A stretch of DNA of 48,021 bases from Bacteroidales bacterium (GCA_003445975.1 DMBV01000051.1:1-48021); one strand, 5' to 3'; positions 297 to 19,236 are shown, counted from the first letter of the stretch. Notes: generated by a model from the letters alone, not told the origin. Translations and numbers: made by a program.

Positions 297-1820
297 TTAA
301 TACAAATTGCGATGACAATCGGAACACAAACCTTCTTTCCACGATGCATATTCATCGTTGGGATGGACAAACTCTAAGGCTTTGAAAATGGAGCCACCTT
401 GAAGACTGTCGGAAATTCCTTGAGCCACAATGGTATGGCAAAGGTTGCAATCCATCGAAACAGTTTCTCCTTTACTTGTCGAATGTTTGTTGTTATGACA
501 ACGAAAACAGCCATCAAACTCCAAATGTCCAATGTTATTTGGATAAACACTCCAGCGAACGCCCATTTCAGGGAAAATATTTTTGCTGAATTCTTCTTGA
601 ATACTCCTTATTGCCTGAACGATTAATTCGGGTTTTTTATCATATAATTCTTTATAAGAATTTGCGTAGTATTCTTTTATCTCAGATTCAATAAAACTGA
701 ACGCGCTATCTTCGGTGGAAAAGTTAGTCGAAAGAATACCCATCGCTAAAGATTTAATGTTTGGCAATTCGGGCGAAATCCGCCCTGCTGCAAGGGCGTT
801 ATTTATGAATCGTACGGGCGTTTTATAGTCGTGCGAAGGCCTGTTGTGGCAATCAATGCAGTCCATCTTGCGAATCCCGAATGTGGTTTTTTCATTTTCA
901 TTCAAGGGAATTGATTTGTCTTCGAAAACTTTTGTTTCGCCGGTTTCCAAATTGGTGTATTTGATCCAAGGAATCACCGACCTGCTGCTGTCGGTTGAAA
1001 TGTATTCCACTTTATTATTGGGATTCACATGCCAATGGATTCCTTCCTCCAAGCCCAAAGCACTGTAGGCCGAACCCGTCTTCATTTGAAGGCCAATAGT
1101 CCATTCCGTGTTCTTTTCGTCGGCCAAATAATGTTTATTCATAACCAATTGGCGCGAATAAAACTTGGTGGGCCAATGACATTCTTCACAGGTTTCTTGG
1201 GCAGGACGCAGATTTTTTATTGGAGTCGGAATTGGTCTTGGAAAATTCCCAACAGTTACGGCATAGACTTGATACAAACCGGAAAGCTTCGAACGAGCAT
1301 ACCAGCCGGCTCCATTTCCAACATGACATTCTACACAAGCTACTTTTGCGTGCGAAGAATGATGATAGGCCACGTATTCCGGCTTCATCACTTCATGGCA
1401 TAAGAGACCGCAAAATTCCACCGATTCGGTGTAGTGAAAAGCTTTGTAACCGCCTACTGTAGTGAGTAATAAAAAAAATAGCGTGCCAATGGAAAAAATT
1501 GTAAACGCATTTCTCGTTTGAGGCTCGTTCAAATTTAGAATCGGCCATTTCTTCTGCGCAGTTGTCGGCTGTTTCTTATCTCTTCTCCGTTTAAAAACCA
1601 TTCCAATTGGAATAAGTAAAAGGCCCATCACCATAAAACCTGGTACAACCAGCCACATCAATAAACCTTGATAAGCGCCGCCTTCAACAAAAATGAAAGA
1701 GATTAGAAATAAAAAAGCAAATGCAATCGCACCCAAAACAAGGATTATAGTTCCAATATAGGAAGTGTAATTGTAGAAAGACGAAGGTAATTTTGTGATA
1801 TTTGTGCCTGATTTCTTCAT
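297..1820 (-). CDS. imcH: ImcH-like inner-membrane heptaheme cytochrome c (NapC/NirT N-terminal domain), putative quinol oxidase
   Basis: 507 aa with three N-terminal hydrophobic helices. NapC/NirT signature FCGLLCHEVM..EY..Y..SSH..VACVECH. Seven heme motifs (CGLLCH, CVECH, CEECH, CIDCH, CFRCH, CNLCH, CSDCH). Size, TM count and heme count match Geobacter ImcH as recalled. Confidence 0.8.
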   Translation of the reverse strand: MKKSGTNITKLPSSFYNYTSYIGTIILVLGAIAFAFLFLISFIFVEGGAYQGLLMWLVVPGFMVMGLLLIPIGMVFKRRRDKKQPTTAQKKWPILNLNEPQTRNAFTIFSIGTLFFLLLTTVGGYKAFHYTESVEFCGLLCHEVMKPEYVAYHHSSHAKVACVECHVGNGAGWYARSKLSGLYQVYAVTVGNFPRPIPTPIKNLRPAQETCEECHWPTKFYSRQLVMNKHYLADEKNTEWTIGLQMKTGSAYSALGLEEGIHWHVNPNNKVEYISTDSSRSVIPWIKYTNLETGETKVFEDKSIPLNENEKTTFGIRKMDCIDCHNRPSHDYKTPVRFINNALAAGRISPELPNIKSLAMGILSTNFSTEDSAFSFIESEIKEYYANSYKELYDKKPELIVQAIRSIQEEFSKNIFPEMGVRWSVYPNNIGHLEFDGCFRCHNNKHSTSKGETVSMDCNLCHTIVAQGISDSLQGGSIFKALEFVHPNDEYASWKEGLCSDCHRNLY

Positions 1821-1850
1821 TCTAAACGGTTCTTTAATTGTTAAAAAGCA

Positions 1851-4637
1851 TCAATATACGCCAGCAATAAGAGAGTAAATAATTAATAGTACAATCGTTA
1901 TTCCCATAAACAAAAACAGGAAGCCGAAAAATTTGACCGTATTTATCCACGAAGTTGAAAGTTCTTTTTCAACAACAACTTTTTCTAGATTTCCGGAATT
2001 AAGCAACTCTTCGTATTCTCTGGGTCTGTCGTTTTTGTATGCTTCCAAAGGTACATAACCTGTAAAAATGACCGTGTCGATTGGGAAAGATTCCGGGCGA
2101 AGATGTGTATTGAAAAAGTGAATTGTGAAAATAAATCCCACTGCTAATAAAGCTTCGTCGCTATGTATAATCTGCGCTACATTGATAACCCATCCTGGCA
2201 TAAACAGCGTAAAAAATTCAGGAAACCAAAGAATTAGTCCCGACAATCCAATTACTGCCACGCCCCAAAAAACGGCCATATAATCAAATTTCTCCCAATA
2301 AGTCCATCGGCCATAATTTGGTCGTGGCCCTTTGCCCAAGAACCATTTGATAGAAGCTACTAAATCTTTCATGTCCTGAAGATTGAACATCAACGAGTTT
2401 TTCCCGAAAATGAATTCCTTCAATTTGTAACCGTTTTTTTTCTTGAGTTGTGCTAGGTTATACAAATGAAATAGAAAATAGCCCAGAGTAAGAATGGCGC
2501 CAAATCGATGAAGACGACCTGCAGAATGAACGCCTCCCAAAAATTTTGCTACGCTCGACGCCCAATCCATGTGAGCAAACTTCAGCGTCATACCCGTTAA
2601 GGCAAGTAAAATAAAACTTACGATTACAAAAATGTGAGTGGTTTGTTGTTTTGCATTGAATCTTCGAACATATTTTTGGGGTCCGGCAACCTGCTCGTGT
2701 ATTAGTTTTTTTCGTTGTTTGAGCGAGCGCGGCAACCACAATAAGGTGTGTAAACCAAAAAAGCCAAAAACAAAAATCAGCAAAGAGGTCATTCCCCAGA
2801 ACGAATAAAACAGTACATTGTTGTCGTTGTGCGTGGCGTGTGTTAAATAGCCGGTAAATGCAAGATTCGCATTTTCATGGCATTGTTTACATGTTTGAAC
2901 GATGTTTTTATAGCCAACAGCCGAATTTGGATTATCGACCGACAAAATATGATGAGCGCCATGACAATCTGAACAACGGGCAGCATCCGGATCTCCTAAT
3001 AAATAGGCTTTTCCGTGATAGGTTTCTTTGTATGTTTCGGATAATTTTTGGTGACAATTTCCACACTGAAAAGTCACTTCATGCATAAAAGCATCTCCTT
3101 TGCTATCGCTAATCAAATGAGCCGAATGACAGGAGGAGCAGCTTGGGTATTCCTTTTCGCCTGTGCTTTGAGCTATTGAATGTTCGCTGGTAATGTATTC
3201 GTCGTAAATACTTCTGTGGCATTTCGCGCAGGTCAATGCTATATTTTTCTTATTTACCGACGACAATGAATCAGACTCTTTTAATTCCTGATGAGAAGTA
3301 TGGCAATCGATGCAAACAGCACTTACCAGCAAGCCTTTTTCCATCAATCCTTTTCCATGAGTGCTATTGGAATAATCAACCAACGCATTTTTTTCCTTCA
3401 AGTCGGTACTCAAATTTGCTTTTCCATCGGTCGCATGGCAGCTTCCGCAAAGTTTTGGAATAGCACTTCGGTAAGTGGGCGAATTTATGTCGAATTTAGA
3501 TTTTGTTTGATGTGTTCCATGGCAATCGGTACAATAGGTCGAGTTTGGTTTCTTGTCTAAAAATGATTTCCCATGACCGCTTGCAAAATAGTCGTTTGCG
3601 ACTTTGTTGTGGCAACCGGAACAATCAACTCGTTTAACAGTTTCGCAGGGTCGTTTAAGGTTTTTCGAAACCGTTGTATGACATTCGACGCATTGAATTT
3701 TGTTGTGGACAGAAGCGGGCAAATGATTCTCGTCAAATAGGATGGTGTCTCCGTTTTGTTTAAAAATAAATTCACCTTTAGATGCATTTATATTGTGGCA
3801 GTCTAAACAAATTTTGTTTGGTATTTTTGCTTTTTCTTTCTCGGGCTCTACTTTATGAGGTGGATGGCAGGTAGTACAAGAAGGAACCGCGCCTTCTTTT
3901 TTCTCCCACAGTTCGCTTTTTATCACTTTCTTATGTGTTTGTTCAATGCGAATGTGACATTTCATGCAGGTTGATGCTACTTTTTGGGTAGAAACGCTGG
4001 AATTTTTGTCTTTCGAAGGAAGAATAGCATGATTTCCATGACAATCGTTGCAGGTTGCAGTAACAAATAAACCTTTCTCGTACAATCCTTTTCCATGAAT
4101 TCCTTGGCTGTAATTTTCGAGAATATTGTGTTCGGAAATGACATATAGACGGGCCACAGGGGCTCCTTCTTTATGGCAATTGCCACAAAGAATGGGGATA
4201 TTCATTTTATACGTGCGCGATTCGGGCAGCTTCGACGAAAGAATATCGTGTGTTCCATGGCATTCTTTGCAGTTGGGAGCATAAGGTTCGTTTCGAATTA
4301 ATGCTTGTCCATGAATCCCGGACTTAAATTCTATTCCGGCTGCTATATGGCATTTCGAACAATCTACAAGGTTTAAAGTTTCCGAATGCGGAAACTCTTC
4401 TACTTTGGCATCGGTATGACAGGAGGCACACTCCACGTTTTTATGTACCGATTTGTCTATAATAGATTGCTTGACAAAGAGCGAAACCTTTTTGCCTTTT
4501 CTTTCTTTTGTTAAACTGGAATCTTCGTGGCACATCATGCAATCTGCGTTGGTTTGCGCCAGAACAAAATGAACACCAATTACGAAATAGAAAAGAATGA
4601 AAAGGAGACGCCTTCGGGAAAATGATTTTTTCAGCAT
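1851..4637 (-). CDS. cbcL: CbcL-like fusion of a 19-heme periplasmic cytochrome c and a C-terminal diheme cytochrome b membrane domain
   Basis: 928 aa with a signal peptide and 19 CxxCH motifs. The C-terminal FdnI/HyaC-like domain has four TM His ligands (QTTHIF, RLHRF, IIHSDE, TIHFF) and the [11 protein letters not shown] motif. Confidence 0.82.
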
Positions 4638-4851
4638 TGCTTTTTGAATTATATTTTCATCTGTTTATAATTTGTTTTTTAACTGTCAGATGGAACTCGC
4701 CATAGATAATCATGCTTCTGTGCGAGAGTGTCTCTCATGGCTCGTTTCATTTAATGATTCAATGGGCTTTCGTTTTCTGATTTATGAGAAGGCTTTGTCG
4801 ATAAAAAACAATCCTTTTTTTATTTTATTCTCTGTCGAAGAGTTTTCCTTT

Positions 4852-4859
4852 CAAATATA
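4852..4859 (-). promoter_or_regulatory. Possible Bacteroidota -7 promoter element for cbcL-imcH
   Basis: TATATTTG on the minus strand (TAnnTTTG), about 215 nt upstream of the cbcL start and just after the 4873-4910 hairpin. Confidence 0.35.
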
Positions 4860-4872
4860 TGCAAAAAACCGA

Positions 4873-4910
4873 ACAAAAGAACAAAGGAAGCAGCTCCTTT
4901 GTTCTTTTGT
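4873..4910 (-). terminator. Intrinsic terminator after the DUF5777 gene
   Basis: Perfect 16-bp inverted repeat ACAAAAGAACAAAGGA / TCCTTTGTTCTTTTGT with a 6-nt loop, followed by a T-run on the minus strand. Confidence 0.7.
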
Positions 4911-5011
4911 GAGTTATTTGTTTGCCTATTCAGATGTGCAAAAATTTGATTGCAACAGCGTTCTGAAATATACGATTCGAACGATTGATTCCCAATCAAA
5001 GCATTGAGAAT

Positions 5012-5878
5012 TTAGAAACCCCACAAGCGAGTCATTACAAAACCGACCGAAAAACCGCCCAATTGCCAATCACTTTGGTTATAAAGAACGATATCTTGAG
5101 GAACTATTCCGTTTGCTGTTGCCAGAAAAATCTGAAAATCGTGTGTTCCGGTGCAAACTTCGTAACCAAAAGAAAGATTTGCTTTTGGTGGATTGATAAA
5201 TTCGCGCTGCTCGGAGAGTACATCAATTTGCAACGGCAAATCATAGGTGAAAATGAAAGACGACTGAGGCGAAAACTTTAACTTTCCGCCAAAATGCCAA
5301 GCTATTTTATCGTGATCCATATCGGCCGCAACAGAATTGTAATGTGTAAAACTGATGGCTGTTTGAATGCTTAGTGCTTCGCTTATTTTTCTTCCAATAA
5401 TAAGTTGCGAAAAATAGGAATACCGATGTATAAACGCATAGTTCAAGCCGTAATCTTTGTCTGGATTGCCACTAATGGCCATGTTTCCATATAAGGTAAT
5501 GGATACAGGAACGGTGTTTTTGCGAGTTTGTTCAAAAACGGTCCATTTTAAGTTGAAATCACTGTACATATTTTCTTTCGTAAGCCCATAGCCAATTTGA
5601 ACATTTTTAAAGAGAACGTAATTGAACCCCAAGCGGAGATTGGCTCCCGGAGAGTAGATTCCATATAAATCGGCCATGCTGCTTTGGATGCTTCCAAAAC
5701 GATGTTGAATAATCGATTCAAAAGAGTGTACCGAAGGAATGACAGAAGTCTGCTGGTCAATCAAAATACCACTTCCCCACGGAGAGTATACCGGTTTGTC
5801 CTTTTCTTCCTCGTCCTGGCAAAAGGCAATGGAAGTAAAAGAAAGAAGGAGTAGGATGCTAAATAGTATTTTCTTCAT
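5012..5878 (-). CDS. DUF5777-family outer-membrane beta-barrel protein
   Basis: Start re-called at ATG 5878 (MKKILF..., 288 aa). Signal peptide AFC|Q, the IQHRFG...LYG motif typical of DUF5777, alternating beta-strand pattern and C-terminal Phe. Confidence 0.75.
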   Translation of the reverse strand: MKKILFSILLLLSFTSIAFCQDEEEKDKPVYSPWGSGILIDQQTSVIPSVHSFESIIQHRFGSIQSSMADLYGIYSPGANLRLGFNYVLFKNVQIGYGLTKENMYSDFNLKWTVFEQTRKNTVPVSITLYGNMAISGNPDKDYGLNYAFIHRYSYFSQLIIGRKISEALSIQTAISFTHYNSVAADMDHDKIAWHFGGKLKFSPQSSFIFTYDLPLQIDVLSEQREFINPPKANLSFGYEVCTGTHDFQIFLATANGIVPQDIVLYNQSDWQLGGFSVGFVMTRLWGF

Positions 5879-5889
5879 AGCTTTTGTGT

Positions 5890-6267
5890 TTAATTGTTTT
5901 TCGCACCTTGATTTATCCATGTGTATATCAATTCTGCTTCATTTGTAGTATAAAACTCCCACCGATGTGTTGTTGCATTGGGTGAAGGATAAGTATAAAT
6001 CAAAGAATTTGCAGGGTTATTTATTACAACAAAACTTCCGTTTGTTAAGCTTTGGTAAGCATTTGCAGTAGTTAAATCCGGTGCAGTTTTTCCAGTATAA
6101 TGACAAACTGTGCATTTACTGTCGGTGTTGAAAATAGGAGCAATATCATTTAGAAACGATAACTCCACGTTTGGATCAGGAGGAGGTATAACTTTTACCT
6201 CTATAAATTCATATTGACAAGCTGTGAAAGATGCCAACACACAAAAAAGAATTATTAACTTCTTCAT
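5890..6267 (-). CDS. Monoheme cytochrome c lipoprotein (planctomycete cytochrome c-like domain)
   Basis: Lipobox FTAC, SF..DIAPIF, a single CTVCH, and C-terminal LIYTWINQGAKNN. Confidence 0.78.
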   Translation of the reverse strand: MKKLIILFCVLASFTACQYEFIEVKVIPPPDPNVELSFLNDIAPIFNTDSKCTVCHYTGKTAPDLTTANAYQSLTNGSFVVINNPANSLIYTYPSPNATTHRWEFYTTNEAELIYTWINQGAKNN

Positions 6268-6411
6268 CTGCTTATATTTTTTTAATTGAATTTGAATTAC
6301 GACAAGTCAATCGTTCGTTTTTCATTTGCTGAGAACCGAGTTTTCGTTTCATCCTTTTTTTCGGTTTTACTGATTAAATTACAAATAGAACGACCCTGAA
6401 ATTTTTGATTT

Positions 6412-6453
6412 AAAAGGAACAATCATTTGTGTGCAAAAATGATTGTTCCTTTT
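6412..6453 (-). terminator. Terminator or stabilising hairpin after the hexaheme lipoprotein gene
   Basis: Perfect 17-bp inverted repeat AAAAGGAACAATCATTT / AAATGATTGTTCCTTTT, 20 nt past the stop codon. Confidence 0.7.
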
Positions 6454-6473
6454 CAGGTTATGACTAAACCAAG

Positions 6474-7511
6474 CTATTTCGTGGCCTTCAAAGCCGCAAT
6501 TGTATTTGTTAATAAGGCATTTACATACTGAGGATTGTGAACACCTAAACTACGATCTTCTTCAATTCCAATCCAGTTGTAATAGGCTTGAGCTCTAACC
6601 ATAGGATAGGTTCCGGGTACTGGTTCGTAAGCTTGATCTACTTCATACCAAGCAACTACACCAAGGCTGATGAGTAAATCTCGTAATTCAGTCAACTTTT
6701 CTTCGGTATCAAACTGAACACCCCCATAATCAAAATTCTCGGTTGCATGACATTCTTGACAAGCTGCCAGACTAGGTTTAAATGTGTGGCCGCCCTGTTT
6801 ATCAATATAATCATCCATATGACAAACTGTACAAGAAGCTTGCTCAAGATGTTTGGAAGATCCAGCTACCGGATAAGTTACTGGTCCAGTAATTTCAGCA
6901 AACCCCTGACCGGCAAAAATATTGGCTTGTGGGCCATGGTGTGGTCCATAATGTGTGTTTGTAATTCTGAAGGTTGTTGCGCCTGCGACTGATGCCGTTT
7001 GTGGTTCTGCTGTTCTGGCTTGATGGCAGTTTATGCAAAGATTGCTGCCGTCGCCAATATCTAAAACAGTCACCCCTTGGTCAATGATCAATCCAACGGG
7101 TTCTTCCGAACGTAGTGCAAAATCGGTGTAGGTAAATGCTGTATGAATGATATGGCAGGTCTCACAATTTATAGCCGAAGGCATTGAAATGTCGGAGGCT
7201 ACCAAGCCATTTGCCTGAAATTCGATAAAGCCCTCACTTGAATGGCATTGAGCACAACCAGCACGACCACCTGCATAGGCTACGTTGGTTCCCGCTTTAT
7301 GAATAGATGAAGCATACTGAAATTGCCTAGCTGAAATGGTAGTTCCCGAATGGCAAGCCAAACAAGTAACATTGCCGTCTTGTCCGTCTTGTCCGTCTTG
7401 TCCGTCTAGCCCATCTTCACCCGTTAATCCGATGGGGCCTTCTTTAACACAAGATGCTAAAAAAACAATGGCAGTCATTAGTAAAATGTGAAAAATAAAT
7501 TTGGTTTTCAT
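6474..7511 (-). CDS. Hexaheme cytochrome c lipoprotein with an N-terminal collagen-like (Gly-X-Y)8 linker
   Basis: Lipobox LASC, then GPIGLTGEDGLDGQDGQDGQDGNV and six CxxCH. The C-terminal AYYNW..IEEDRSLGVHNPQYVNALL resembles the c552/OmcB-type helical tail. Confidence 0.8.
   Translation of the reverse strand: MKTKFIFHILLMTAIVFLASCVKEGPIGLTGEDGLDGQDGQDGQDGNVTCLACHSGTTISARQFQYASSIHKAGTNVAYAGGRAGCAQCHSSEGFIEFQANGLVASDISMPSAINCETCHIIHTAFTYTDFALRSEEPVGLIIDQGVTVLDIGDGSNLCINCHQARTAEPQTASVAGATTFRITNTHYGPHHGPQANIFAGQGFAEITGPVTYPVAGSSKHLEQASCTVCHMDDYIDKQGGHTFKPSLAACQECHATENFDYGGVQFDTEEKLTELRDLLISLGVVAWYEVDQAYEPVPGTYPMVRAQAYYNWIGIEEDRSLGVHNPQYVNALLTNTIAALKATK
7375..7407 (-). repeat. In-frame 9-bp tandem repeat encoding the collagen-like G-Q-D triplets
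   Basis: (CCGTCTTGT)x3 plus CCGTCT on the plus strand. Confidence 0.9.
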
Positions 7512-7550
7512 GATCCTTTTATTTTTAGTGTATAATTTGATTATTTATGA

Positions 7551-7637
7551 CAAAAATATTTCTATGTTATTGATATAACAATGATATATTAACGAAATCA
7601 AGTTGATGTTTATCATTGAAATATTGACATATATCAT
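7551..7637 (-). promoter_or_regulatory. Promoter of the hexaheme lipoprotein gene: -7 element, TGTTAT-N4-ATAACA palindrome and tandem FNR-like boxes
   Basis: TATTTTTG (minus strand, 7551-7558); TGTTAT-TGAT-ATAACA (7565-7580); weak ATGAT-ATAT-TAACG (7581-7594); TTGAT-GTTT-ATCAT (7603-7616); TTGAC-ATAT-ATCAT (7624-7637). Confidence 0.7.
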
Positions 7638-7723
7638 CGCGATAAATCGATTATTTATACTACACTGTGCATTGAGATAGCGGCCTTGGGCCAAAGCGGA
7701 TGGATTGGTAGGAAGAATGTATA

Positions 7724-7762
7724 AAAACAAAAAAGCCCCTTTGCTGATAAGACAAAGAGGCT
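7724..7762 (-). terminator. Intrinsic terminator after the cbcA-cbcB-c554 unit
   Basis: Stem AGCCCCTTTG / CAAAGAGGCT (one G-U pair on the minus-strand RNA) followed by a T-tract on the minus strand, 20 nt past the stop at 7783. Confidence 0.65.
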
Positions 7763-7782
7763 CTAATTGAAAGAAAAATAAG

Positions 7783-8271
7783 CTAAGCGGCAGGTTTTGG
7801 GTGCGCAACTTTTGCAAGGGCTTCTTTGTAATTAAAGCCTTTGTAATGCTTGCTTTCAGGATTGTGGCACGTGACGCATACTTTTTCGGTAGGCAATATC
7901 AAACCTTTTGCCATGGAAGCTTCTCTGCTTTTCATGATGGCATTTGGGAAATATGCACTTCCTGGACCATGGCAAGATTCGCAAGAAACGCCTTCGGTCA
8001 CTTTCAAGCCTGTTACCAAATCAATCTTTACACTGCCGTGCGTAGAGTGACACTTATTGCATTTTGGATCCAAGGCTTCTGTTGCACTTAAAGATTCCAT
8101 TGCTTTTGAGTGACGCGATTCCACCCATTGTGCATACTGTCCACCGGTTTCGACTTTGTTGTGGCACATTTTGCATTTGTTAGCGCCAACGTACGTAAAT
8201 TCTTGGGCTTTCAGGCTGCTGTTTCCTATAAAAGCAACCATAAAAATTAAAATTAAAATTCTCATTTTCAT
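7783..8271 (-). CDS. Periplasmic tetraheme cytochrome c (cytochrome c554 family)
   Basis: Signal peptide LKA|Q, YVGANKCKMCH...W..S.H, CNKCH, GVSCESCHGPGS, CVTCH. Confidence 0.85.
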   Translation of the reverse strand: MKMRILILIFMVAFIGNSSLKAQEFTYVGANKCKMCHNKVETGGQYAQWVESRHSKAMESLSATEALDPKCNKCHSTHGSVKIDLVTGLKVTEGVSCESCHGPGSAYFPNAIMKSREASMAKGLILPTEKVCVTCHNPESKHYKGFNYKEALAKVAHPKPAA

Positions 8272-8351
8272 CTTTTTATTTATTTAAGTGTTTATTAATT
8301 ATTTGAATTTAAGTTTAGAATACTTCTTGAAAAGAATAAAAGTTTATTTTT

Positions 8352-8966
8352 TTAATGTTTCTCATGAAAACCGGTAAACATGCTTTTAAAATTACTCGTT
8401 GGAGTACAACCAATTGTGCAAAAATAAATGTGCACAATCAAGAAGACAGATATAAAAAAGCCCATTATTACGTGGATAATATCAGTAATATGAAGTGCCT
8501 TACTGCCGAAAATTTCAAAAATCATCAGTTCCGGAAAAAAGAGCATAAGCCCGCTTAAAGCTACCAAAGGAATGGTTAAATGCATGATGACAATATAGCT
8601 GAACTTCTGCAAAGGATTAAATTTGGATTCTTCAGTAATAGGAAAGGGCGGTTTTTCGCCTTTAAAGATTCCAAAGGAATAGTATTTAGCTTGCTTTATT
8701 AGGTTATTTACGATTCCTTTTCTGAAAATATAATGCTTCCCGTTGGGTGTTAGCACATTACCAATAAAAAATCCAAGATAACTCACCGCCAATAAGATTC
8801 CGGCAATATCGTGTAAATAAACAGCCCAATCGAAGCGAATCATTGGATAGGCCGGATCGGAATATTGCATGCTTATTCCGGTGAATATCAAAAGCAAGCA
8901 TAGGATGGCATTAGACCAATGCCAAAATCGAACCCAAACAGGATATAAATATATTTTTTCACTCAT
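8352..8966 (-). CDS. cbcB: CbcB-like diheme cytochrome b (four TM helices)
   Basis: Start re-called at ATG 8966 (MSEKIY..., 204 aa), overlapping the upstream stop by 8 nt (ATGAGTGA). Heme b His ligands in RFWHW, YLHD, IIHV and IVHIY; KFNPLQK motif. Confidence 0.75.
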   Translation of the reverse strand: MSEKIYLYPVWVRFWHWSNAILCLLLIFTGISMQYSDPAYPMIRFDWAVYLHDIAGILLAVSYLGFFIGNVLTPNGKHYIFRKGIVNNLIKQAKYYSFGIFKGEKPPFPITEESKFNPLQKFSYIVIMHLTIPLVALSGLMLFFPELMIFEIFGSKALHITDIIHVIMGFFISVFLIVHIYFCTIGCTPTSNFKSMFTGFHEKH

Positions 8967-9945
8967 GGCGCTTTTTAGAATTAAAGATGATACGTAAAGA
9001 AGCATGAATCAACAAAACAACTACCACAAGTCCGAATAAAATTATACTTATCGCATTCAGATAATAATTTCTGTTTGCTCCAATCACATACGATTCTTCT
9101 AGTATAGCATCGTTCGAAAAGCCTAAATCGCTTCGTTTATTCGTAAATTGATATTTGTACAAGGAGGCCAATAGCCGTGAATTCTTTGAATGGCATTCGA
9201 CGCATGATTTTACAGCCAATTCTTTTGGCAGTACATTGTGTGCTACCAATATTTCGTTGTTTATTTCGGTATGGCATTCAATGCAGCGCACTTTGCTAAA
9301 ATGTAAAACTTGATTTGGAAGCCATGCATGTGTTTCCAAAACATTTGGGTTGTCTTTGGTTGTAAGTAACTGATATTTACTTAAGTTGGCATGGCATGAC
9401 AGACAAATTTCGTTGTCGTATAAAATAAAATCGGCCACCTTCTCATTGGTTCGAGCGGAAATTTTATACGTATGGGGGTTGTGACACAACGAACAAGTAA
9501 AGTCATCCAAATGCTTAGACGAATGGACACTTTTGTGAAAGTCCTCTTCGATTTTTTCAAAATTATATTGAGAATGAGTATCATCGCCGGCATGGCAATC
9601 CATACATGAAAATTTTGGCTCCATACGTGCCTGACCGGAATGGGGAAATTCACCACATTCTGAAGAATGACAGTCGCCGCACAAGAAAGTTCGGTGGTTC
9701 GATGCGTAATACTCCAACGAATCAATAATAAAATAAGGATTCATACGCTGTTTGACTTCGCGTTCGGTGTTGGAGTTGAAGTACGAAAACGTAGAGTATC
9801 CATGACATTTAAAACATTCTTGATTTTGCTCGATGTTGGCAGGGTCTATCGCAATGGATTCTTCTTGTGCCAAAACAGTAGCAGTTGTTGCAAAAAGTAC
9901 AGAGAAAATCAGAAGTAAAGTGTAGATAACAAATCTCGATTTCAC
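8959..9945 (-). CDS. cbcA: CbcA-like heptaheme cytochrome c with a C-terminal membrane anchor
   Basis: 328 aa with signal peptide VLA|Q, seven CxxCH and a single C-terminal TM helix (ISIILFGLVVVVLLIHASL). Translationally coupled to the cytochrome b gene, as in Geobacter cbcAB. Confidence 0.75.
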   Translation of the reverse strand: MKSRFVIYTLLLIFSVLFATTATVLAQEESIAIDPANIEQNQECFKCHGYSTFSYFNSNTEREVKQRMNPYFIIDSLEYYASNHRTFLCGDCHSSECGEFPHSGQARMEPKFSCMDCHAGDDTHSQYNFEKIEEDFHKSVHSSKHLDDFTCSLCHNPHTYKISARTNEKVADFILYDNEICLSCHANLSKYQLLTTKDNPNVLETHAWLPNQVLHFSKVRCIECHTEINNEILVAHNVLPKELAVKSCVECHSKNSRLLASLYKYQFTNKRSDLGFSNDAILEESYVIGANRNYYLNAISIILFGLVVVVLLIHASLRIIFNSKKRHE

Positions 9946-9983
9946 AATTTTTAAATATTTTTATGTTTAGTAAATATAGGATG

Positions 9984-10048
9984 TAAAAGTATTTTTTTGT
10001 TATATTTATAACAATGATATTTGTCATCAATATATTGATATATGTCAA
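9984..10048 (-). promoter_or_regulatory. Promoter of cbcA-cbcB-c554: -7-like element, TGTTAT-N4-ATAACA palindrome and two FNR-like boxes
   Basis: TACTTTTA (minus strand, 9984-9991); TGTTAT-ATTT-ATAACA (9998-10013); ATGAT-ATTT-GTCAT (10014-10027); TTGAT-ATAT-GTCAA (10035-10048). Confidence 0.7.
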
Positions 10049-10398
10049 TTTATGAAAACCTATTTATCGAAATCCAATGCGAAAAATCCAAACATAATTT
10101 GGTTGGCGAGTCGATTTTTAAATGAGTATAATTAGTTGAATATGAATAATATGTAATAATACCAAAAGAGGGGCGTTTTGGTGATTCACCATCAAAAATT
10201 TAGAAAACCGAAGTTCATATTTTTCTAATTTTGCTAGTGCTAAAAATAAATTAGCTCTTTTTGTTGAGAAGCAGGATCGATTTAATGCTGGAATATCCCA
10301 CAGCCGTGATGAATTTTTCGGCATGCTTTTTTTTAAAAGACTTCTTTGGTGATTCGGCTCAAATTTGGCTGCTGAAAATAAAATTCTGCTCAAGGGAA

Positions 10399-11097
10399 TT
10401 AACTATTACTGATCTTGGTCAATGAATTTAATTTAACAATTTCCACTTGATTTCTGTTCACTTTGATAATGCCGGCGTCTTTCAGCTCCTTGAGCGTGCG
10501 AATAAAACTTTCTTTTGTCATGGCGGCTAGATCGGCCAAATCTTGACGGCTTAAGTTTAGTGTAAACCTTTCACTCTCATAAATTTCATTTTGTAAGTAT
10601 AGCAAAACTTCAGCTACTCGACCGGCCATGCTTTTATAAGTAAGATTGGCTAGTTTATGCGTAAACTGGATGCTGTTTTGATTTGTCAGCGTAATCATCT
10701 CAATAGCCATTACTTTGCTTTTTTCTATCACCGCTTCAATATCTTTTGTTGCAATCAAACAAAGATTCACATCTGTCAGAGCTTGAACAGTCAGATGATG
10801 AATGTTGTCGGTATATAGACCAATTCCGCTACAAATTCTTCCTGCTCCAACAATATTCACGAGCATATTGCTGCCTTCCGGTCGCTCGTAGTAAACTTTT
10901 GCCATTCCCTCTCTAAAACAGGCAAAATGAGTGAGAGCGGTGCCTTGTTTAAAGATAACTTCCCCAGCTTTAAAAACAACTTCTTTGCGTTCCGAATGGA
11001 GCTCGTTGAATTCAGTTTTGGATAGTTTTCGAAATAAGGGTGGGGTGCTTTCGCAGCAGCAAATAGTACACGTTCCGTAATGAATACAATCTCTCAT
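10399..11097 (-). CDS. Crp/Fnr family transcriptional regulator with a Cys-rich N-terminus
   Basis: cNMP-binding-like domain (FKAGEVIFKQG...EGMAKVY) and HTH LSRQDLADLAAMTKESFIRTL. The N-terminus MRDCIHYGTCTICCC has five Cys. Confidence 0.9.
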   Translation of the reverse strand: MRDCIHYGTCTICCCESTPPLFRKLSKTEFNELHSERKEVVFKAGEVIFKQGTALTHFACFREGMAKVYYERPEGSNMLVNIVGAGRICSGIGLYTDNIHHLTVQALTDVNLCLIATKDIEAVIEKSKVMAIEMITLTNQNSIQFTHKLANLTYKSMAGRVAEVLLYLQNEIYESERFTLNLSRQDLADLAAMTKESFIRTLKELKDAGIIKVNRNQVEIVKLNSLTKISNS

Positions 11098-11421: not shown

Positions 11422-12426
11422 ATGATGAAGTTTGGAATGGGATTGTTATTTTTCTTTGTTCTGCAGTCGGCTATGGCTCAAAGGACTTCGAGTGTTCAGA
11501 ACAATTTGGTTACGGATAATATACTCATCCAATGGATAAATCAATACCCCAGTCCAGGCAATAAGAATACCCACAGGTCTTTTTTTGAACAAGTAGCTCG
11601 CATTGTTTTTGGTAAGAAAAGCGGATTAAACATTCGAAAACCGAATGCCGTTCTAGCCAAAAGTCCTATTTCTTATACTATCATGGATCAGGGAAATGAG
11701 GTTCTTTTCAATGTTGAAAATGAGGAAATGCGAATTCCTAAAGGATTCAAAAAAACAAAATTTTATTTCCCTTCCTTGGTAAGTATGTGTTATCTTTCAA
11801 GCACTCTGGTCTTGTTTACGGATTCCAAATTGAATCAGCTATTTTTGTTAGACCAAGTCCGCGAAACTTTAGGATTGTTCAACACAGACATAATACTCAA
11901 TCAGCCAACCGGAATTGCTTATTCTGTTTTGAGTAATGAAATTTGGGTTGTTGAGACGGGCGCTCACCGCATTCAAATATTTACCGAAAAGGGAGCACTT
12001 GTAAAAACAATTGGCGGTAGAGGTTCTGAGCCAGGTGAATTCAATTATCCTACGGCCATCTGGATTGATAAAAATGGAAAGGCTTATATTATCGATTCGA
12101 TGAATTTTAGAATTCAGGTGTTTGATTCCGCCGGAAAGCTTGTTTCGGTTTTTGGGGAACCAGGCGATGCTAGTGGCTATTTTGCCCGGCCAAAAGGAAT
12201 TGCTACCGATTCGTTTGGGAATATATATATTACGGATGCTTTGTTTCATACAGTTCAAATTTTCGACTTGTCGGGCAATTATTTATATAATTTTGGAGAA
12301 CAAGGCAGAGGAAACGGACAGTTTTGGATGCCTTCAGGTATTTTTATTGATGAGAATAATTTTATTTATATAGCAGATAGTTACAATTCAAGGATTCAAG
12401 TATTTCAACTTAATAAAAATGAGTAA
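11422..12426 (+). CDS. NHL-repeat 6-bladed beta-propeller protein (secreted)
   Basis: Signal peptide AMA|Q and repeated NHL motifs (GEFNYPTAIWID..G..YI.DS.N.RIQVF, FARPKGIATD, FWMPSGIFID). Confidence 0.88.
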   Translation: MMKFGMGLLFFFVLQSAMAQRTSSVQNNLVTDNILIQWINQYPSPGNKNTHRSFFEQVARIVFGKKSGLNIRKPNAVLAKSPISYTIMDQGNEVLFNVENEEMRIPKGFKKTKFYFPSLVSMCYLSSTLVLFTDSKLNQLFLLDQVRETLGLFNTDIILNQPTGIAYSVLSNEIWVVETGAHRIQIFTEKGALVKTIGGRGSEPGEFNYPTAIWIDKNGKAYIIDSMNFRIQVFDSAGKLVSVFGEPGDASGYFARPKGIATDSFGNIYITDALFHTVQIFDLSGNYLYNFGEQGRGNGQFWMPSGIFIDENNFIYIADSYNSRIQVFQLNKNE

Positions 12427-14101
12427 AATGAAGAGAACTACATTTCTTATACTACTTGGATTGATTTATTTTTCTTTATCAGTTAACGCTCAGTCAATTA
12501 GAACCACAAAGCATAATTTGTCGGTTACAAGCCCGGGAACTATCAAAGCCACCACGGAAAGCGAAATCTGCATTTTTTGTCATACTCCACACAATAGTAC
12601 ACCCAAGGTTCCATTGTGGAATAGAAACGTAGCAGGAAGTGTTTATACCTTGTACACAAGTTCTACCTTGAACGCCACCGAAGGTCAGCCCGATGGAGCT
12701 TCTATTTTATGCCTTTCCTGTCATGATGGATCGATCGCTTTGGGGAGTGTTGTGAGTAGAATTTCTCCGATAGATATGACGCTTGCATTGAGTTCAGACG
12801 CAAATTTATCAACCGATTTATCAAACGATCATCCAATTTCGTTTTTGTATAATAGTACATTGGCTACCTCTGACGGGCAATTGAGAACTCCGCCATTAAC
12901 TACAACGCACCTCGATAACAATTCAAAATTACAATGTTCGTCCTGCCATGACCCGCACAAAGACCTTTATCCTAATTTTTTGTTGGCATCAAATCTAAAT
13001 TCAGGACTTTGTATTTTGTGTCACAGCAGAACGTATTGGGCGAGCTGCACACATGCTTCTTCGAGCAAGACTTGGAATGGCTCGGGCTTAAATCCTTGGG
13101 CACATATCGAAACTCCTTACCCTACAGTTTCACAAAACGCATGTGCCAATTGCCATAATGTGCACAATGCCAATGGAAAACTTCGCTTGCTTAAATTAGT
13201 TCCAGAAGAAAGTAACTGCCTAGATTGCCACAATGGAAATGTAGCCAGCAAAAATATTCAATCACAGTTTGCCAAAATATATAAACATAATATATATGGA
13301 TACAATAATATTCACGATCCCGCCGAAGCGACTTCGGTAACAACAAAACATGTTGAATGTCAGGATTGTCATAATTCCCACGCATCGAATGCGAGCACGG
13401 CCACTGCGCCTTTTGTTTCGGGGTATAATGTTGGTGTAAGTGGGATAAATCAGAGTGGTGTAGCTGTATCGTCGGTGAGTAATACTTACGAAATATGCTA
13501 TAAGTGTCACGCTGGCAATTCTTGGTCGCCACCGGCTGCTTTGCCGCGAAAAATAAGTCAGAATAATGTTCGATTGGAATTTGCCACCGGAAATCCGTCG
13601 TTTCATCCGGTAGTTGGATCTACCATTACCAACTCGCCAAGCATAATTCCGCCCCTCACTACGGGCTCTAAAATTTATTGCACTAATTGCCACGGAAGTG
13701 ATAATAGCAGCGACCCCAGAGGTCCTCACGGCTCCTTGTATCCGCAAATATTGAAATTGCAATATACAAGCATTGATAATACAGTTGAATCGCCTACGGC
13801 GTATGCGCTTTGTTACAGCTGCCACAGCAGAACCAGTATTTTGAGCGACAATACGTTTAAAAAACATTTTGTTCACGTAGTTACTGCAAAAACCCCATGC
13901 AGCGTTTGCCACGACGCGCACGGAATAAGTAATATACAAGGCAATAGCACCAATAATTCACATCTTATCAATTTTAGAACAGATGTGGTGGTAGGTATAG
14001 GCGCTTTATTGCGTTTGGAGTTTGTGGATAGAGGCGACCGAAGTGGATATTGTGTTTTAAAATGCCACAATAAAGTACATGGTTCTGGAATGTCCTATTA
14101 G
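12419..14101 (+). CDS. 12-heme cytochrome c: N-terminal OmcE-like tetraheme module fused to an 8-heme extension
   Basis: 11 CxxCH plus C-terminal CVLKCH. The N-terminal SIRTTKHNLS, CIFCHTPHN, PLWNR, LCLSCHDG, TDLSNDHPISF and CSSCHDPH mirror OmcE motifs. The start overlaps the NHL stop. Confidence 0.8.
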   Translation: MSKMKRTTFLILLGLIYFSLSVNAQSIRTTKHNLSVTSPGTIKATTESEICIFCHTPHNSTPKVPLWNRNVAGSVYTLYTSSTLNATEGQPDGASILCLSCHDGSIALGSVVSRISPIDMTLALSSDANLSTDLSNDHPISFLYNSTLATSDGQLRTPPLTTTHLDNNSKLQCSSCHDPHKDLYPNFLLASNLNSGLCILCHSRTYWASCTHASSSKTWNGSGLNPWAHIETPYPTVSQNACANCHNVHNANGKLRLLKLVPEESNCLDCHNGNVASKNIQSQFAKIYKHNIYGYNNIHDPAEATSVTTKHVECQDCHNSHASNASTATAPFVSGYNVGVSGINQSGVAVSSVSNTYEICYKCHAGNSWSPPAALPRKISQNNVRLEFATGNPSFHPVVGSTITNSPSIIPPLTTGSKIYCTNCHGSDNSSDPRGPHGSLYPQILKLQYTSIDNTVESPTAYALCYSCHSRTSILSDNTFKKHFVHVVTAKTPCSVCHDAHGISNIQGNSTNNSHLINFRTDVVVGIGALLRLEFVDRGDRSGYCVLKCHNKVHGSGMSY

Positions 14102-14146
14102 CTATTTTGTTTTTTTTAATCGAAATCATAAAAAAATACATGTAAA

Positions 14147-14205
14147 TTGATATATATCAACGAATAAGTGAATATTTTGTTATACATTTGTGAAAAATAT
14201 AACAG
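14147..14205 (+). promoter_or_regulatory. Promoter of the OmcE-like gene: perfect FNR box, -7 element and a Rex/CRP-like palindrome over the start site
   Basis: TTGAT-ATAT-ATCAA (14147-14160), a 22-nt spacer, TACATTTG (14183-14190), then TTGTGAA-AAAT-ATAACAG (14188-14205). Confidence 0.8.
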
Positions 14206-14237
14206 TGTTTAATTAATAACATATAACTATTTGCCTT

Positions 14238-14864
14238 ATGAAAACTTTAAATTTACTCGCTGCATTTTGTTTTGCGGTGTTTTTTTCGACAATGGGTTTT
14301 GGTCAAATTGCCGGATCTGCCCATGATTTCACTACTGAGAGCTGGAACTCCTCCGGTGAAATGTGTAATGCTTGCCATACACCACACAATTCGTTAACAA
14401 TTGCCGATGCTCCGTTGTGGGATCACCAAGTGAGTGTTGCCACTTTTACACTTTACACTTCCCCAACTATGAATGGAACATTTGGTGTAGGTGCACAGCC
14501 CTCAGGATCGTCAAAATTGTGCTTAAGCTGTCATGATGGGACAGTAGCTCTTGACAACTTTGGTGGAGTTACCACGGGAACTAATTTTATTACAGGTGTT
14601 GGTAATGTTGGCATTGATTTATCTAATGACCATCCAGTTTCTTTTACTTACGATGCTGCTTTGGCTACTGCTGATGGTGGTTTGTTCAACCCAACCACAG
14701 CAAATAGCGGTCTGGGTAGCACGGTCACTGCCGACTTGTTGTATGCCGGAAAAGTAGAATGTTCTTCTTGTCACGATGTGCACAGAGGCGGAAGTGCAAC
14801 AGGAAAATTATTGGTTAAGTCGAATGCTGCAAGTGCGCTTTGTTTAACATGTCACGACAAATAG
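14238..14864 (+). CDS. omcE: OmcE-like tetraheme cytochrome c, candidate cytochrome nanowire subunit
   Basis: 208 aa with a Sec signal and four CxxCH. The motif order SAHDF, CNACHTPHN, PLWD, FTLYTS.TMN, SKLCLSCHDG, DLSNDHPVSF, ECSSCHDVH and terminal LCLTCHDK matches Geobacter OmcE as recalled. Four conserved distal His allow bis-His ligation of all hemes. Confidence 0.82.
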   Translation: MKTLNLLAAFCFAVFFSTMGFGQIAGSAHDFTTESWNSSGEMCNACHTPHNSLTIADAPLWDHQVSVATFTLYTSPTMNGTFGVGAQPSGSSKLCLSCHDGTVALDNFGGVTTGTNFITGVGNVGIDLSNDHPVSFTYDAALATADGGLFNPTTANSGLGSTVTADLLYAGKVECSSCHDVHRGGSATGKLLVKSNAASALCLTCHDK

Positions 14865-14884
14865 GGTGACTTATTCACGACATT

Positions 14885-14920
14885 AAATCCAAAGGAGGCC
14901 ATCGCCTCCTTTGGATTTTT
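14885..14920 (+). terminator. Strong intrinsic terminator after the OmcE-like gene
   Basis: Perfect 15-bp stem AAATCCAAAGGAGGC-CATC-GCCTCCTTTGGATTT ending in a T-run, 20 nt past the stop. Confidence 0.85.
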
Positions 14921-15175
14921 CATAATTCGCTTACTGATAGTGTGATGAAGCTTACTTATAAAAGGTGGTTTTTTTGTATTGTCGTTTTTATTTAAAATTC
15001 GCACAAGCTTAAATCAGTATTTGCTACTTACGACATTTTTTGGGAACGGCTATGCCTGTTTTTTTGTTAAACCCTAATTGTTAATTACTTAAAACAAGTT
15101 TTGTTCGAATCGAAAAATAAATACACTATCTTTAAAGAAAAACTATACGATTGCAAATTTAAAGAATCCCAACTA

Positions 15176-16276
15176 ATGAAAACTAAACTAAATCTCTCCT
15201 CCATTTTATTACTTCTCTTTCCGCTATTTTTTATTTCGTGTTCGCCTCGTCTAAAAAAGGAGATTGCTGTTGAGTCTGTTTTATATCCTGCAGCCCCTAG
15301 TGTGGCAAAAATTCAGTACCTTACAAGTATTAGCAATTCTTTGCAGATTACAAAAAAGCAAACTTCCTTACAGAAGACGGTGGTTGGCGAGAAAAAAGGA
15401 ATGCCAATTTACAAGCCGTATGGTGTATTTATCCGAAACGGAAAGCTTTATATCTGCGATATTTCTTTAGGTGGATTAGAAATCATCGATTTGGAGAATA
15501 AGGACTTTCAGTATTTTGTGCCACAAGGTGTCAATAGTCTGAAAATGGCCATCAACGTTTTTGTTGATTTGGATAATACGCGCTATATTGTAGATGCGGA
15601 TTTGCATCGGGTAGTTATTTTTGATGAATCTGGAAAATACCAAACCGCCTTTGGCTTTGATGAAAATACCAAGCCCACAGGAGTCTTTGTTTATAAAACC
15701 GAAATTTTTGTGGTTGATTCGGAAAATCATCGGGTGAATGTTTATGATAAACAAGACAAAAGCTTTAAGTTTTATTTCCCAAAATCCAATCCCGGCGACG
15801 ACAATTTTTTGTACAAGCCAACAAACCTCACCGTGGAAAACGACAAAGTTTATGTTAGTGATTTAGGTGCCGGTGATGTTAAGATTTATTCCTTAAACGG
15901 AAAATATTTAAGAAAAATTGGGCAATATGGTAGGAATATTGGAGATTTTGTTCGCCCCAAAGGAGTGGCAGTAGATCGGGAGGAGAATTTGTATGTTGTA
16001 GATGCAAGTTTCGAAAATATTCAGATATTTAATAAAGAAGGGAAATTGCTTATGTTTTTTGGAGGCCATTATGAAGGCGCGGGCGGAATGTGGTTGCCTA
16101 CCAGCGTAGTGATCGATTATGATAATTTAGCGTATTTCGAAAAATATGTGGACCCCAAATATAAATTGGAATATTTAATTATTGTAGCCAATCAGTTTGG
16201 TCCAGATAAGGTAAATATTTATGGGCGTATTAATCCTATTGTCGAGAAAGCGGACGTTGGTAAAAATAAAAACTAA
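15176..16276 (+). CDS. NHL-repeat beta-propeller lipoprotein
   Basis: Start re-called at ATG 15176 (366 aa). Lipobox FFISC and NHL blades (KPYGV, KPTNL, GDFVRPKGVAVD, GGMWLPTSV). Confidence 0.85.
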   Translation: MKTKLNLSSILLLLFPLFFISCSPRLKKEIAVESVLYPAAPSVAKIQYLTSISNSLQITKKQTSLQKTVVGEKKGMPIYKPYGVFIRNGKLYICDISLGGLEIIDLENKDFQYFVPQGVNSLKMAINVFVDLDNTRYIVDADLHRVVIFDESGKYQTAFGFDENTKPTGVFVYKTEIFVVDSENHRVNVYDKQDKSFKFYFPKSNPGDDNFLYKPTNLTVENDKVYVSDLGAGDVKIYSLNGKYLRKIGQYGRNIGDFVRPKGVAVDREENLYVVDASFENIQIFNKEGKLLMFFGGHYEGAGGMWLPTSVVIDYDNLAYFEKYVDPKYKLEYLIIVANQFGPDKVNIYGRINPIVEKADVGKNKN

Positions 16277-16373
16277 TGTTCTCGCCCGGAATAATTACGG
16301 AGGTGTTGTTTTCTTTTACGAAGAAGTAAGAATTGATAATTAAATAAACTGTACACTAAATACTGACTAAAAC

Positions 16374-17216: not shown

Positions 17217-17225
17217 TCAGGCGCT

Positions 17226-19208: not shown

Positions 19209-19236
19209 TAAAACATAACGCAATAAAATAGAGATA

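Follow-up and report, generated by a model that had tools for sequence, protein, structure and literature searches.

Three structurally different predicted menaquinol oxidoreductases in a multihaem cytochrome gene cluster conserved in the Bacteroidota

A 48,021-nucleotide stretch of DNA from a Bacteroidales bacterium (GCA_003445975.1, DMBV01000051.1:1-48021; this whole stretch is hereafter called the window) carries, on its minus strand between positions 297 and 11097, a cluster of nine genes that we designate A, B, C, D, E, F, G, H and I by order of coordinate (Table 1). We consider it probable, at about 0.6, that this cluster encodes three structurally different menaquinol:periplasmic-cytochrome oxidoreductases with downstream cytochromes, as a set conserved in the Bacteroidota. 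The three are the ImcH-type product of gene A, the CbcL-type product of gene B, and the pair formed by genes H and G, whose layout is that of CbcBA. Their architectures, their family relationships and the conserved synteny of their genes are read directly from the sequences compared here.

The original prediction for this region was that it holds, as a single cassette, all three of the quinol oxidases that Geobacter employs at different acceptor potentials. The modules themselves were described accurately: a NapC/NirT heptahaem with three transmembrane helices, a fusion of a multihaem c-type domain (we count 19 haems) to a cytochrome b, and a seven-haem, C-terminally anchored cytochrome whose gene overlaps that of a four-helix cytochrome b by 8 nt all lie on one strand inside 10 kb. 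Their identification with the Geobacter proteins fared unevenly, as set out below.

Results

An ImcH-type heptahaem cytochrome

The published description of ImcH proteins comprises a length of 495-519 aa, three N-terminal helices, a CX3CH motif beside the membrane domain, and six CXXCH motifs. Gene A shows every one of these features of length, helices and haem motifs. Its length of 507 aa is that of Geobacter sulfurreducens ImcH (GSU3259), hydropathy places three N-terminal hydrophobic helices at residues 25-43, 57-75 and 105-123, and these are followed by CGLLCH at residue 137 and CXXCH motifs at residues 162, 211, 321, 438, 458 and 499, giving seven haems. The NapC/NirT N-terminal region (PF03264) is matched over residues 108-193 with an E-value of 1e-10, and NrfH is matched in the PDB (2j7a, E 3e-5); the score against the NrfH profile TIGR03153, 50 bits, is under the equivalog cutoff, as expected for an ImcH.

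The predicted haem ligands agree in detail. The axial histidines of G. sulfurreducens ImcH are residues 137/152/161/210/256/258/316/321/423/433/453/474/491, with Gln179 as a further axial ligand, and its pocket residues are Glu127, Lys173 and Tyr188, as given in the ImcH biochemistry paper. All 13 histidines have an equivalent in gene A, in the same order and with near-equal spacing (142/157/166/215/262/264/325/330/432/442/462/486/503), while Q184, E132 and K178 correspond to Gln179, Glu127 and Lys173. The conserved, protonatable Tyr188, in contrast, is replaced by Phe193 in gene A (window positions 1242-1244), and tyrosine is found in nine of ten aligned relatives.

Identity between gene A and G. 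sulfurreducens ImcH is approximately 39% over 267 columns, a value that derives from a partial sequence (the first ~275 residues) obtained by optical character recognition (OCR); identities reported between ImcH of the Geobacter group and those of other phyla are 31.5-49%. The Draconibacterium sediminis protein WP_045033316.1, named an ImcH homologue in two papers, is 50% identical to gene A, and its gene, which is our locus L063, shares synteny with the window. A difference from G. sulfurreducens concerns gene organisation, since imcH is monocistronic there, whereas gene A is co-transcribed with, or at least lies beside, the CbcL-type gene. By each sequence criterion tested, gene A is predicted to be an ImcH-family protein, and the original prediction stands on this point.

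One related protein has an unusual composition. P0131 (734 aa) carries a CbcB-like domain at residues 2-201, followed by haem motifs with the exact ImcH spacing (380, 429, 539, 656, 676 and 716). It is known from a single sequence, on a 16.8-kb NCBI contig, and could be a genuine CbcB-ImcH fusion or else the product of a missed stop codon. A fusion would be topologically possible because the two ends that are joined are both predicted to lie in the cytoplasm.

A CbcL/MtrH/MtoC-type fusion protein

Members of the CbcL/MtrH/MtoC family combine a multihaem c-type domain with a six-helix b-type domain, and vary between 3 and 23 haems and between 416 and 1034 aa. The product of gene B has this composition, its 19 CXXCH motifs lying within residues 33-587 and its helices between about 608 and 924; Pfam and profile scans return weak Ni_hydr_CYTB and FdnI matches for the membrane domain.

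Comparison with characterised systems relied on a Desulfuromonas thiophila locus (L081) as the working reference for CbcL, CbcA and CbcB, while the OCR alignments, which are noisy and have partly duplicated rows, were used for rough identity values only. Fragments of G. sulfurreducens CbcL obtained in this way retrieved five short proteins as queries, one of which led to L081. Searches for CbcB by representative, cluster and profile returned Acidobacteria, Proteobacteria, KSB1 and Desulfovibrionia and no Geobacter, and the PDB contained no close relatives. In L081, cbcL is split into ORFs (open reading frames) of 434 and 179 aa that abut at position 6001 (L081 4697-6540), indicating a frameshift or a sequencing error. 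Also encoded at this locus are a sigma-54 regulator, a C-terminally anchored seven-haem cytochrome and a cytochrome b of 213 aa (L081 8522-12073), the arrangement that Joshi et al. described for CbcBA. Since cbcL lies only 4.4 kb from this regulator and the cbcA-cbcB pair, two of the three systems adjoin even within the Desulfuromonadales.

Residues 339-926 of gene B align with residues 32-611 of D. thiophila CbcL, colinear with the whole of CbcL, at 35% identity over 623 columns (blastp, E 7e-122). The membrane domains are 41-42% identical, rising to 51% over the last 179 residues, and the OCR fragment of G. sulfurreducens CbcL gives 56% for this domain. Within the window, gene B and D. thiophila CbcL are each other's best match. 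CbcL has been described as having conserved histidines in transmembrane helices 1, 2 and 3 and two in helix 5; H630, H668 and H710 of gene B (helices 1-3) and its H825/H840/H845 (helix 5) are all retained in D. thiophila CbcL and in the D. sediminis homologue.

The c-type portion departs from the Geobacter form. Geobacter CbcL (GSU0274) has nine c-type haems, whereas gene B has 19, and this excess is explained by duplication of an 8-haem module of ~246 aa: residues 63-289 and 309-534 align with each other at 36% identity with a score of 391, as compared to 44 ± 8 for shuffled sequences. The same 19-haem spacing is present in Caldithrix abyssi Cabys_319, Bacteroidetes HGW-4 PKP08298.1 and Ignavibacteria OGU58019.1, and 19-haem family members from Caldithrix, Bacteroidetes and Ignavibacteria were already tabulated in 2018. 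The distance between gene B and Desulfuromonas CbcL (35% identity) is similar to that between G. sulfurreducens CbcL and MtrH/MtoC, likewise about 35%. On these sequence comparisons, gene B is assigned to the CbcL/MtrH/MtoC family.

A heptahaem cytochrome and its cytochrome b partner

Genes H and G resemble CbcBA (GSU0593/0594) in that a heptahaem cytochrome with a histidine-bearing C-terminal anchor is translationally coupled to a four-helix cytochrome b. The anchor of H spans residues 299-317 and carries His314, which is kept in all 31 homologues. G begins before the end of H, giving the 8-nt overlap seen in the sequence ATGAGTGA, and the true start of G is the second ATG, at 8966, in agreement with its homologues.

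The affiliation of the pair is less straightforward. G is 33-35% identical to D. thiophila CbcB (E 7e-36 at 35%), and the NCBIfam profile for PhsC (PRK15006) gives 185.6 bits for G, under the cutoff of 204, and 105.8 for D. thiophila CbcB. Neighbour-joining of 159 family members groups G with its Bacteroidota relatives in a separate clade and places Desulfuromonas CbcB elsewhere in the tree. The mean identities are nearly uniform (33% between the G clade and PhsC, 31% between the G clade and CbcB, and 30% between PhsC and CbcB), and bootstrapping leaves an unresolved three-way split. The haem motifs of H are spaced 45,25,37,30,40,27, as opposed to 31,23,22,24,29,98 in Desulfuromonas CbcA; identity between the two is 24.5% over 200 residues, a similarity of a generic kind, and the best match of D. 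thiophila CbcA in the window falls in gene B rather than H. Best-hit comparison with the Desulfuromonas proteins, which stand in for those of Geobacter, pairs CbcL with gene B but does not pair CbcA with gene H. A further difference is regulatory, the Desulfuromonas locus having a sigma-54 BccR-like regulator whereas the neighbour of the window genes is of the Crp/Fnr family and no sigma-54 regulator is present.

Clear homology between H and CbcA is confined to the junction and the anchor. An alignment of the anchor plus the b-type domain covers four forms, namely the pair in the window, that of Desulfuromonas, fused heptahaem-cytochrome b proteins and the five-helix PhsC; a junction motif preceding the anchor helix is conserved, and five histidines, including one in the anchor, are invariant among all of them. 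Given the shared motif and histidines, the anchor of H corresponds to the initial helix of a five-helix cytochrome b of the PhsC type, and the boundary between the two genes falls between helices 0 and 1 of such a protein. The N-terminal helix of PhsC (..GLVIHALLRR; Salmonella phsC, L082 3845-4609) aligns with the anchor of H (..VLLIHASLRI; window 8959-9105), as does the corresponding helix of the fused forms.

Single-chain fusions of heptahaem and cytochrome b domains with the exact haem spacing of the window number 32 among the best 150 family representatives. The window-type form, often a single fused protein, is commoner in the databases than Desulfuromonas-type CbcBA. Salmonella PhsC has phsA and phsB partners, whereas G has none, its first helix residing in a separate gene on a heptahaem domain; unlike the Salmonella phs locus, the window contains no genes for molybdopterin or FeS subunits. 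A true thiosulfate reductase was considered and rejected because phsAB is absent. By sequence, H and G match CbcBA in architecture only, and in the neighbour-joining tree G falls outside the Geobacter/Desulfuromonas-type clade. The proposed identity with CbcBA therefore holds for the layout of the pair, and fails for clade, haem spacing and regulator.

Conservation of the cluster

An alignment-based scan for ImcH, using one genome per species, yielded 597 relatives, and the comparison was made on the best 80 loci of these 597, which belong to the Bacteroidota, Ignavibacteriota and Calditrichota. Modules were counted in the 41 loci in which imcH is flanked by 9 kb or more on either side. Ten of these 41 have ImcH, a CbcL-type gene and an H/G pair within 10 kb of imcH, nine have ImcH and H/G without a CbcL-type gene, and six combine ImcH with a CbcL-type gene only. 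Of the others, nine have no partner genes of the window near imcH, and seven have some of the accessory genes alone (C, E, F or the regulator).

The usual gene order, Crp-E-D-C-H-G-B-A-F on one strand, is found in at least 12 species and many metagenome-assembled genomes, including the cultured Draconibacterium sediminis JN14CK-3, Maribellus sp. YY47 and Mangrovibacterium lignilyticum; in D. sediminis JN14CK-3 the 7-haem, cytochrome b, 19-haem and ImcH genes are contained within 6.3 kb. The window has the usual modules in a different order. The gene set recurs in dozens of genomes and so does not reflect chance. Rather than being peculiar to this organism, the cluster is a lineage-wide trait of the Bacteroidota, with parts shared with the Ignavibacteriota and Calditrichota. 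The cassette proposed for this organism is thus real as far as the clustering of the modules goes, but four other genes (C, D, E and F) intervene, and many Bacteroidota possess it.

Individual parts have been reported in Bacteroidetes before, namely ImcH in D. sediminis, five CbcL/MtrH/MtoC homologues, and cbcBA-like clusters in Prolixibacter, Marinilabiliales and Labilibaculum. Our literature searches found no paper describing the co-clustering of the three modules, and nothing on the cluster, on DUF5777 or on electron transfer in the Prolixibacteraceae.

Gene layout and accessory genes

The window has a G+C content of ~38%, and its closest protein matches in homology searches are named Bacteroidales metagenome-assembled genomes. 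Among public runs, a sediment metagenome contains the region, and metagenomes from lake, cave, biofilm, soil and groundwater match it in part.

Table 1. Features of the nine-gene cluster in the window (residue ranges refer to the encoded protein)
Feature	Position	Strand	Properties
Gene A, ImcH-family heptahaem	297-1820	-	507 aa; three transmembrane helices, CX3CH and 6 CXXCH
Gene B, CbcL/MtrH/MtoC-family fusion	1851-4637	-	928 aa; signal/anchor, 19 CXXCH, six-helix b-type domain
Gene B, six-helix cytochrome b domain	1854-2852	-	residues about 596-928
Gene B, second 8-haem copy	3036-3713	-	residues 309-534; colinear with 9-haem CbcL domain
Gene B, first 8-haem copy	3771-4451	-	residues 63-289
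Terminator-like hairpin between C and B	4873-4910	-	17-bp stem and T tail
Gene C, DUF5777 beta-barrel	5012-5920	-	302 aa; signal peptide; Pfam PF19089, E 9e-65
Gene D, monohaem lipoprotein	5890-6267	-	125 aa
Gene E, hexahaem lipoprotein	6474-7511	-	345 aa; lipobox LASC, Gly-x-Asp-Gly repeats, 6 CXXCH
Terminator-like hairpin 3' of tetrahaem gene F	7732-7764	-	13-bp stem and T tail
Gene F, periplasmic tetrahaem, c554-like	7783-8271	-	162 aa; Pfam PF13435, E 1e-11
Gene G, PhsC/CbcB-family four-helix dihaem cytochrome b	8352-8966	-	204 aa; Ni_hydr_CYTB (PF01292), E 5e-25
Gene H, heptahaem c-type cytochrome, C-terminal anchor	8959-9945	-	328 aa; 7 CXXCH; CbcA-like
Gene I, Crp/Fnr-family regulator, Cys-rich N-terminus	10399-11097	-	Pfam cNMP_binding and HTH_Crp_2; FixK/FnrL/Fnr-like profiles

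The two strong terminator-like hairpins suggest that the arm from 297 to 11097 is split into three transcription units, [H-G-F], [E-D-C] and [B-A], rather than forming one operon. Genes B and A are separated by 30 nt, and genes D and C overlap by 31 nt. No promoters were assigned, since a sigma-70 scan performed no better than on shuffled sequences and the Bacteroidetes-type -33/-7 pattern gave 4 matches where 2.7 were expected.

Gene F, which matches cytochrome c554 (PDB 1bvb, E 1e-3) and comes after imcH in the order usual among relatives, is a candidate soluble electron carrier. Gene C is co-conserved with the cluster in 33 of the 80 related loci and has no PDB relative, and gene D is kept beside it in related loci. 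In gene E, a collagen-like Gly-x-Asp-Gly-x-Asp-Gly run occupies residues 25-46, between the lipobox and the first haem motif, and is perhaps a flexible tether. No gene for a catalytic reductase of the molybdopterin, NrfA or a similar type was found in the cluster.

Regulator I adjoins the cluster in most related loci. Its N-terminus (MRDCIHYGTCTICCCES) contains five cysteines in the first 15 residues (C4, C10, C13-15) and resembles the iron-sulphur-binding N-terminus of FNR.

Divergent from regulator I, the plus strand carries a second set of cytochrome genes at 11422-20310 with a porin-cytochrome-like layout, in the order NHL propeller, 11-12-haem cytochrome, 4-haem cytochrome, NHL propeller, 9-haem cytochrome, a 660-aa protein and a 10-11-haem cytochrome. 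The 660-aa protein has no Pfam match, ends in ...RKF, and is likely an outer-membrane barrel. Within 10 kb of imcH, parts of this set recur in one related locus only (L012). Further along, a minus-strand ORF of 485 aa at 36507-37964 (MAKVVVLGAGISGHTAV) shows a by-eye likeness to flavin adenine dinucleotide (FAD)-dependent enzymes of the pyridine-nucleotide-disulfide or sulfide:quinone oxidoreductase type.

Discussion

Proposed mechanism and alternatives

ImcH has been described as NrfH-like, with a quinol site that faces the periplasm and releases protons outside. The product of gene A would most likely act in the same manner, oxidising menaquinol at a periplasm-facing site beside haem 1, with its His/Gln ligation and conserved Glu and Lys, and releasing the protons outside. 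In the H+G pair, the C-terminal helix of the heptahaem protein would supply a haem-b histidine to the PhsC/CbcB-type cytochrome b. Both this pair and gene B would possess a membrane-spanning dihaem b domain, at which quinol would be oxidised towards the cytoplasmic side and electrons sent outward; for CbcL and Phs, such domains have been argued in the literature to place this reaction at the cytoplasmic side, with no contribution to the proton-motive force. Less energy would be conserved by this route, or proton-motive force may even be spent, and acceptors of lower potential would come within reach. CbcBA has been reported to support the lowest growth yield. We infer that electrons can leave the menaquinol pool by exits of at least two energetic classes, and that these may be chosen according to acceptor potential, conceivably under the control of an Fnr-like sensor of redox state or oxygen.

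From the three modules, electrons would pass by way of tetrahaem F, lipoproteins E and D and the DUF5777 barrel C, and perhaps the porin-cytochrome-like set of the plus strand. Such a path would indicate an acceptor outside the cell or at its surface. A bolder version of this proposal is that the cluster constitutes a self-contained and hitherto undescribed extracellular electron-transfer system of the Bacteroidota, Ignavibacteriota and Calditrichota, with three exits that differ in energy conservation and an outer-membrane route of barrel and lipoproteins unrelated to Mtr/Pcc; we put this forward tentatively, as an idea more doubtful than otherwise.

Several observations weigh against our interpretation of the cluster. 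Gene G is as near to enterobacterial PhsC (35-40% identity) as it is to CbcB, and relatives of CbcL/MtrH/MtoC also occur in Fe(II) oxidisers, which bears on the direction of electron flow. The G. sulfurreducens references were OCR fragments taken from alignments in paper supplements, and the D. thiophila locus used beside them has its cbcL split in two. No public RNA runs holding the region were found, and the literature searched contained no report of metal or electrode respiration tied to the cluster in its cultured carriers. Finally, a single-sequence AlphaFold model of gene C was unusable (mean predicted local distance difference test score, pLDDT, 31.6), and that genes C, D and E provide a path through the outer membrane is conjectural.

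The question arises as to how far the Geobacter model may be carried over. Were A, B and HG functional orthologues of ImcH, CbcL and CbcBA, together forming a portable switching kit, they would be expected to operate above -0.1 V, between -0.1 and -0.21 V, and below -0.21 V, respectively. The three architectures are present, the ImcH residues are conserved, the modules are clustered, and the helix 5 motif of gene B is near-identical to that of Desulfuromonas CbcL. Yet identities are 35-40%, the haem domain of B is doubled, G is equidistant from PhsC, the haem spacing of H differs and its likeness to CbcA is generic, and there is no BccR-type sigma-54 regulator. Furthermore, CbcL of Geobacter, which is essential below -0.1 V and switched off at high potential, has its potential window shifted by a single residue change, so that such windows are not inferable from family membership. 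We therefore regard functional orthology in this strict sense as unlikely, and the specific Geobacter values of -0.1 V and -0.21 V are not transferable from sequence at such divergence. Tiering by potential nonetheless appears plausible on bioenergetic grounds.

It is also unlikely, in our estimation, that the modules are NrfH-like and PhsC-like quinol dehydrogenases serving reductases encoded elsewhere, with soluble or periplasmic acceptors such as sulfur, polysulfide or thiosulfate, nitrite, arsenate or selenate, or humics. The homology of A to NrfH/NapC would accord with this, NapC/NirT relatives typically serving periplasmic reductases, as would the PhsC-profile score and PhsC identity of G. 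However, no phsAB, nrfA or molybdopterin gene is present in the window or the conserved cluster, the genes conserved alongside encode multihaem cytochromes, lipoproteins and a beta-barrel, and the partner of G is a heptahaem cytochrome that is fused to it in many genomes. The tight and conserved H-G-(B)-A adjacency raises the possibility that the three modules form one assembly, or redundant parallel exits, instead of alternatives selected by potential, and P0131, read as a CbcB-ImcH fusion of compatible topology, would fit such an arrangement. That protein is a single sequence which may be a missed stop, though, and with B missing in about half of the loci that have A and HG, and A often alone, this reading seems very unlikely. 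The least probable reading, to which we give little credence, is that the system operates in the uptake direction or both ways, the quinone pool being reduced by electrons drawn from Fe(II), cathodes or partner cells, a role that has been proposed for MtoC. The two directions are not distinguished by any feature of the sequence, and the Fe(II) oxidisers mentioned above possess homologues of CbcL/MtrH/MtoC, but ImcH homologues have so far been reported in reducers only, and the carriers of the cluster are mostly fermentative or anaerobic sediment heterotrophs. The reading that we prefer remains that of three different menaquinol exits delivering electrons to periplasmic cytochromes.

Significance

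The cytochrome b module occurs in split, fused and PhsC forms, which together illustrate clearly how the anchor helix of CbcA would contribute a haem ligand. Because the cluster is present in cultured, publicly sequenced isolates, the idea of tiering by potential is open to genetic and voltammetric tests in organisms other than Geobacter. If the cluster is active, Bacteroidales that abound in sediment and groundwater, and are usually deemed fermenters, could respire extracellular acceptors over a range of potentials, with a bearing on iron and manganese cycling and on bioelectrochemical communities. Should the system prove to be self-contained, common sediment Bacteroidota would be metal or electrode respirers that adapt to acceptor potential.

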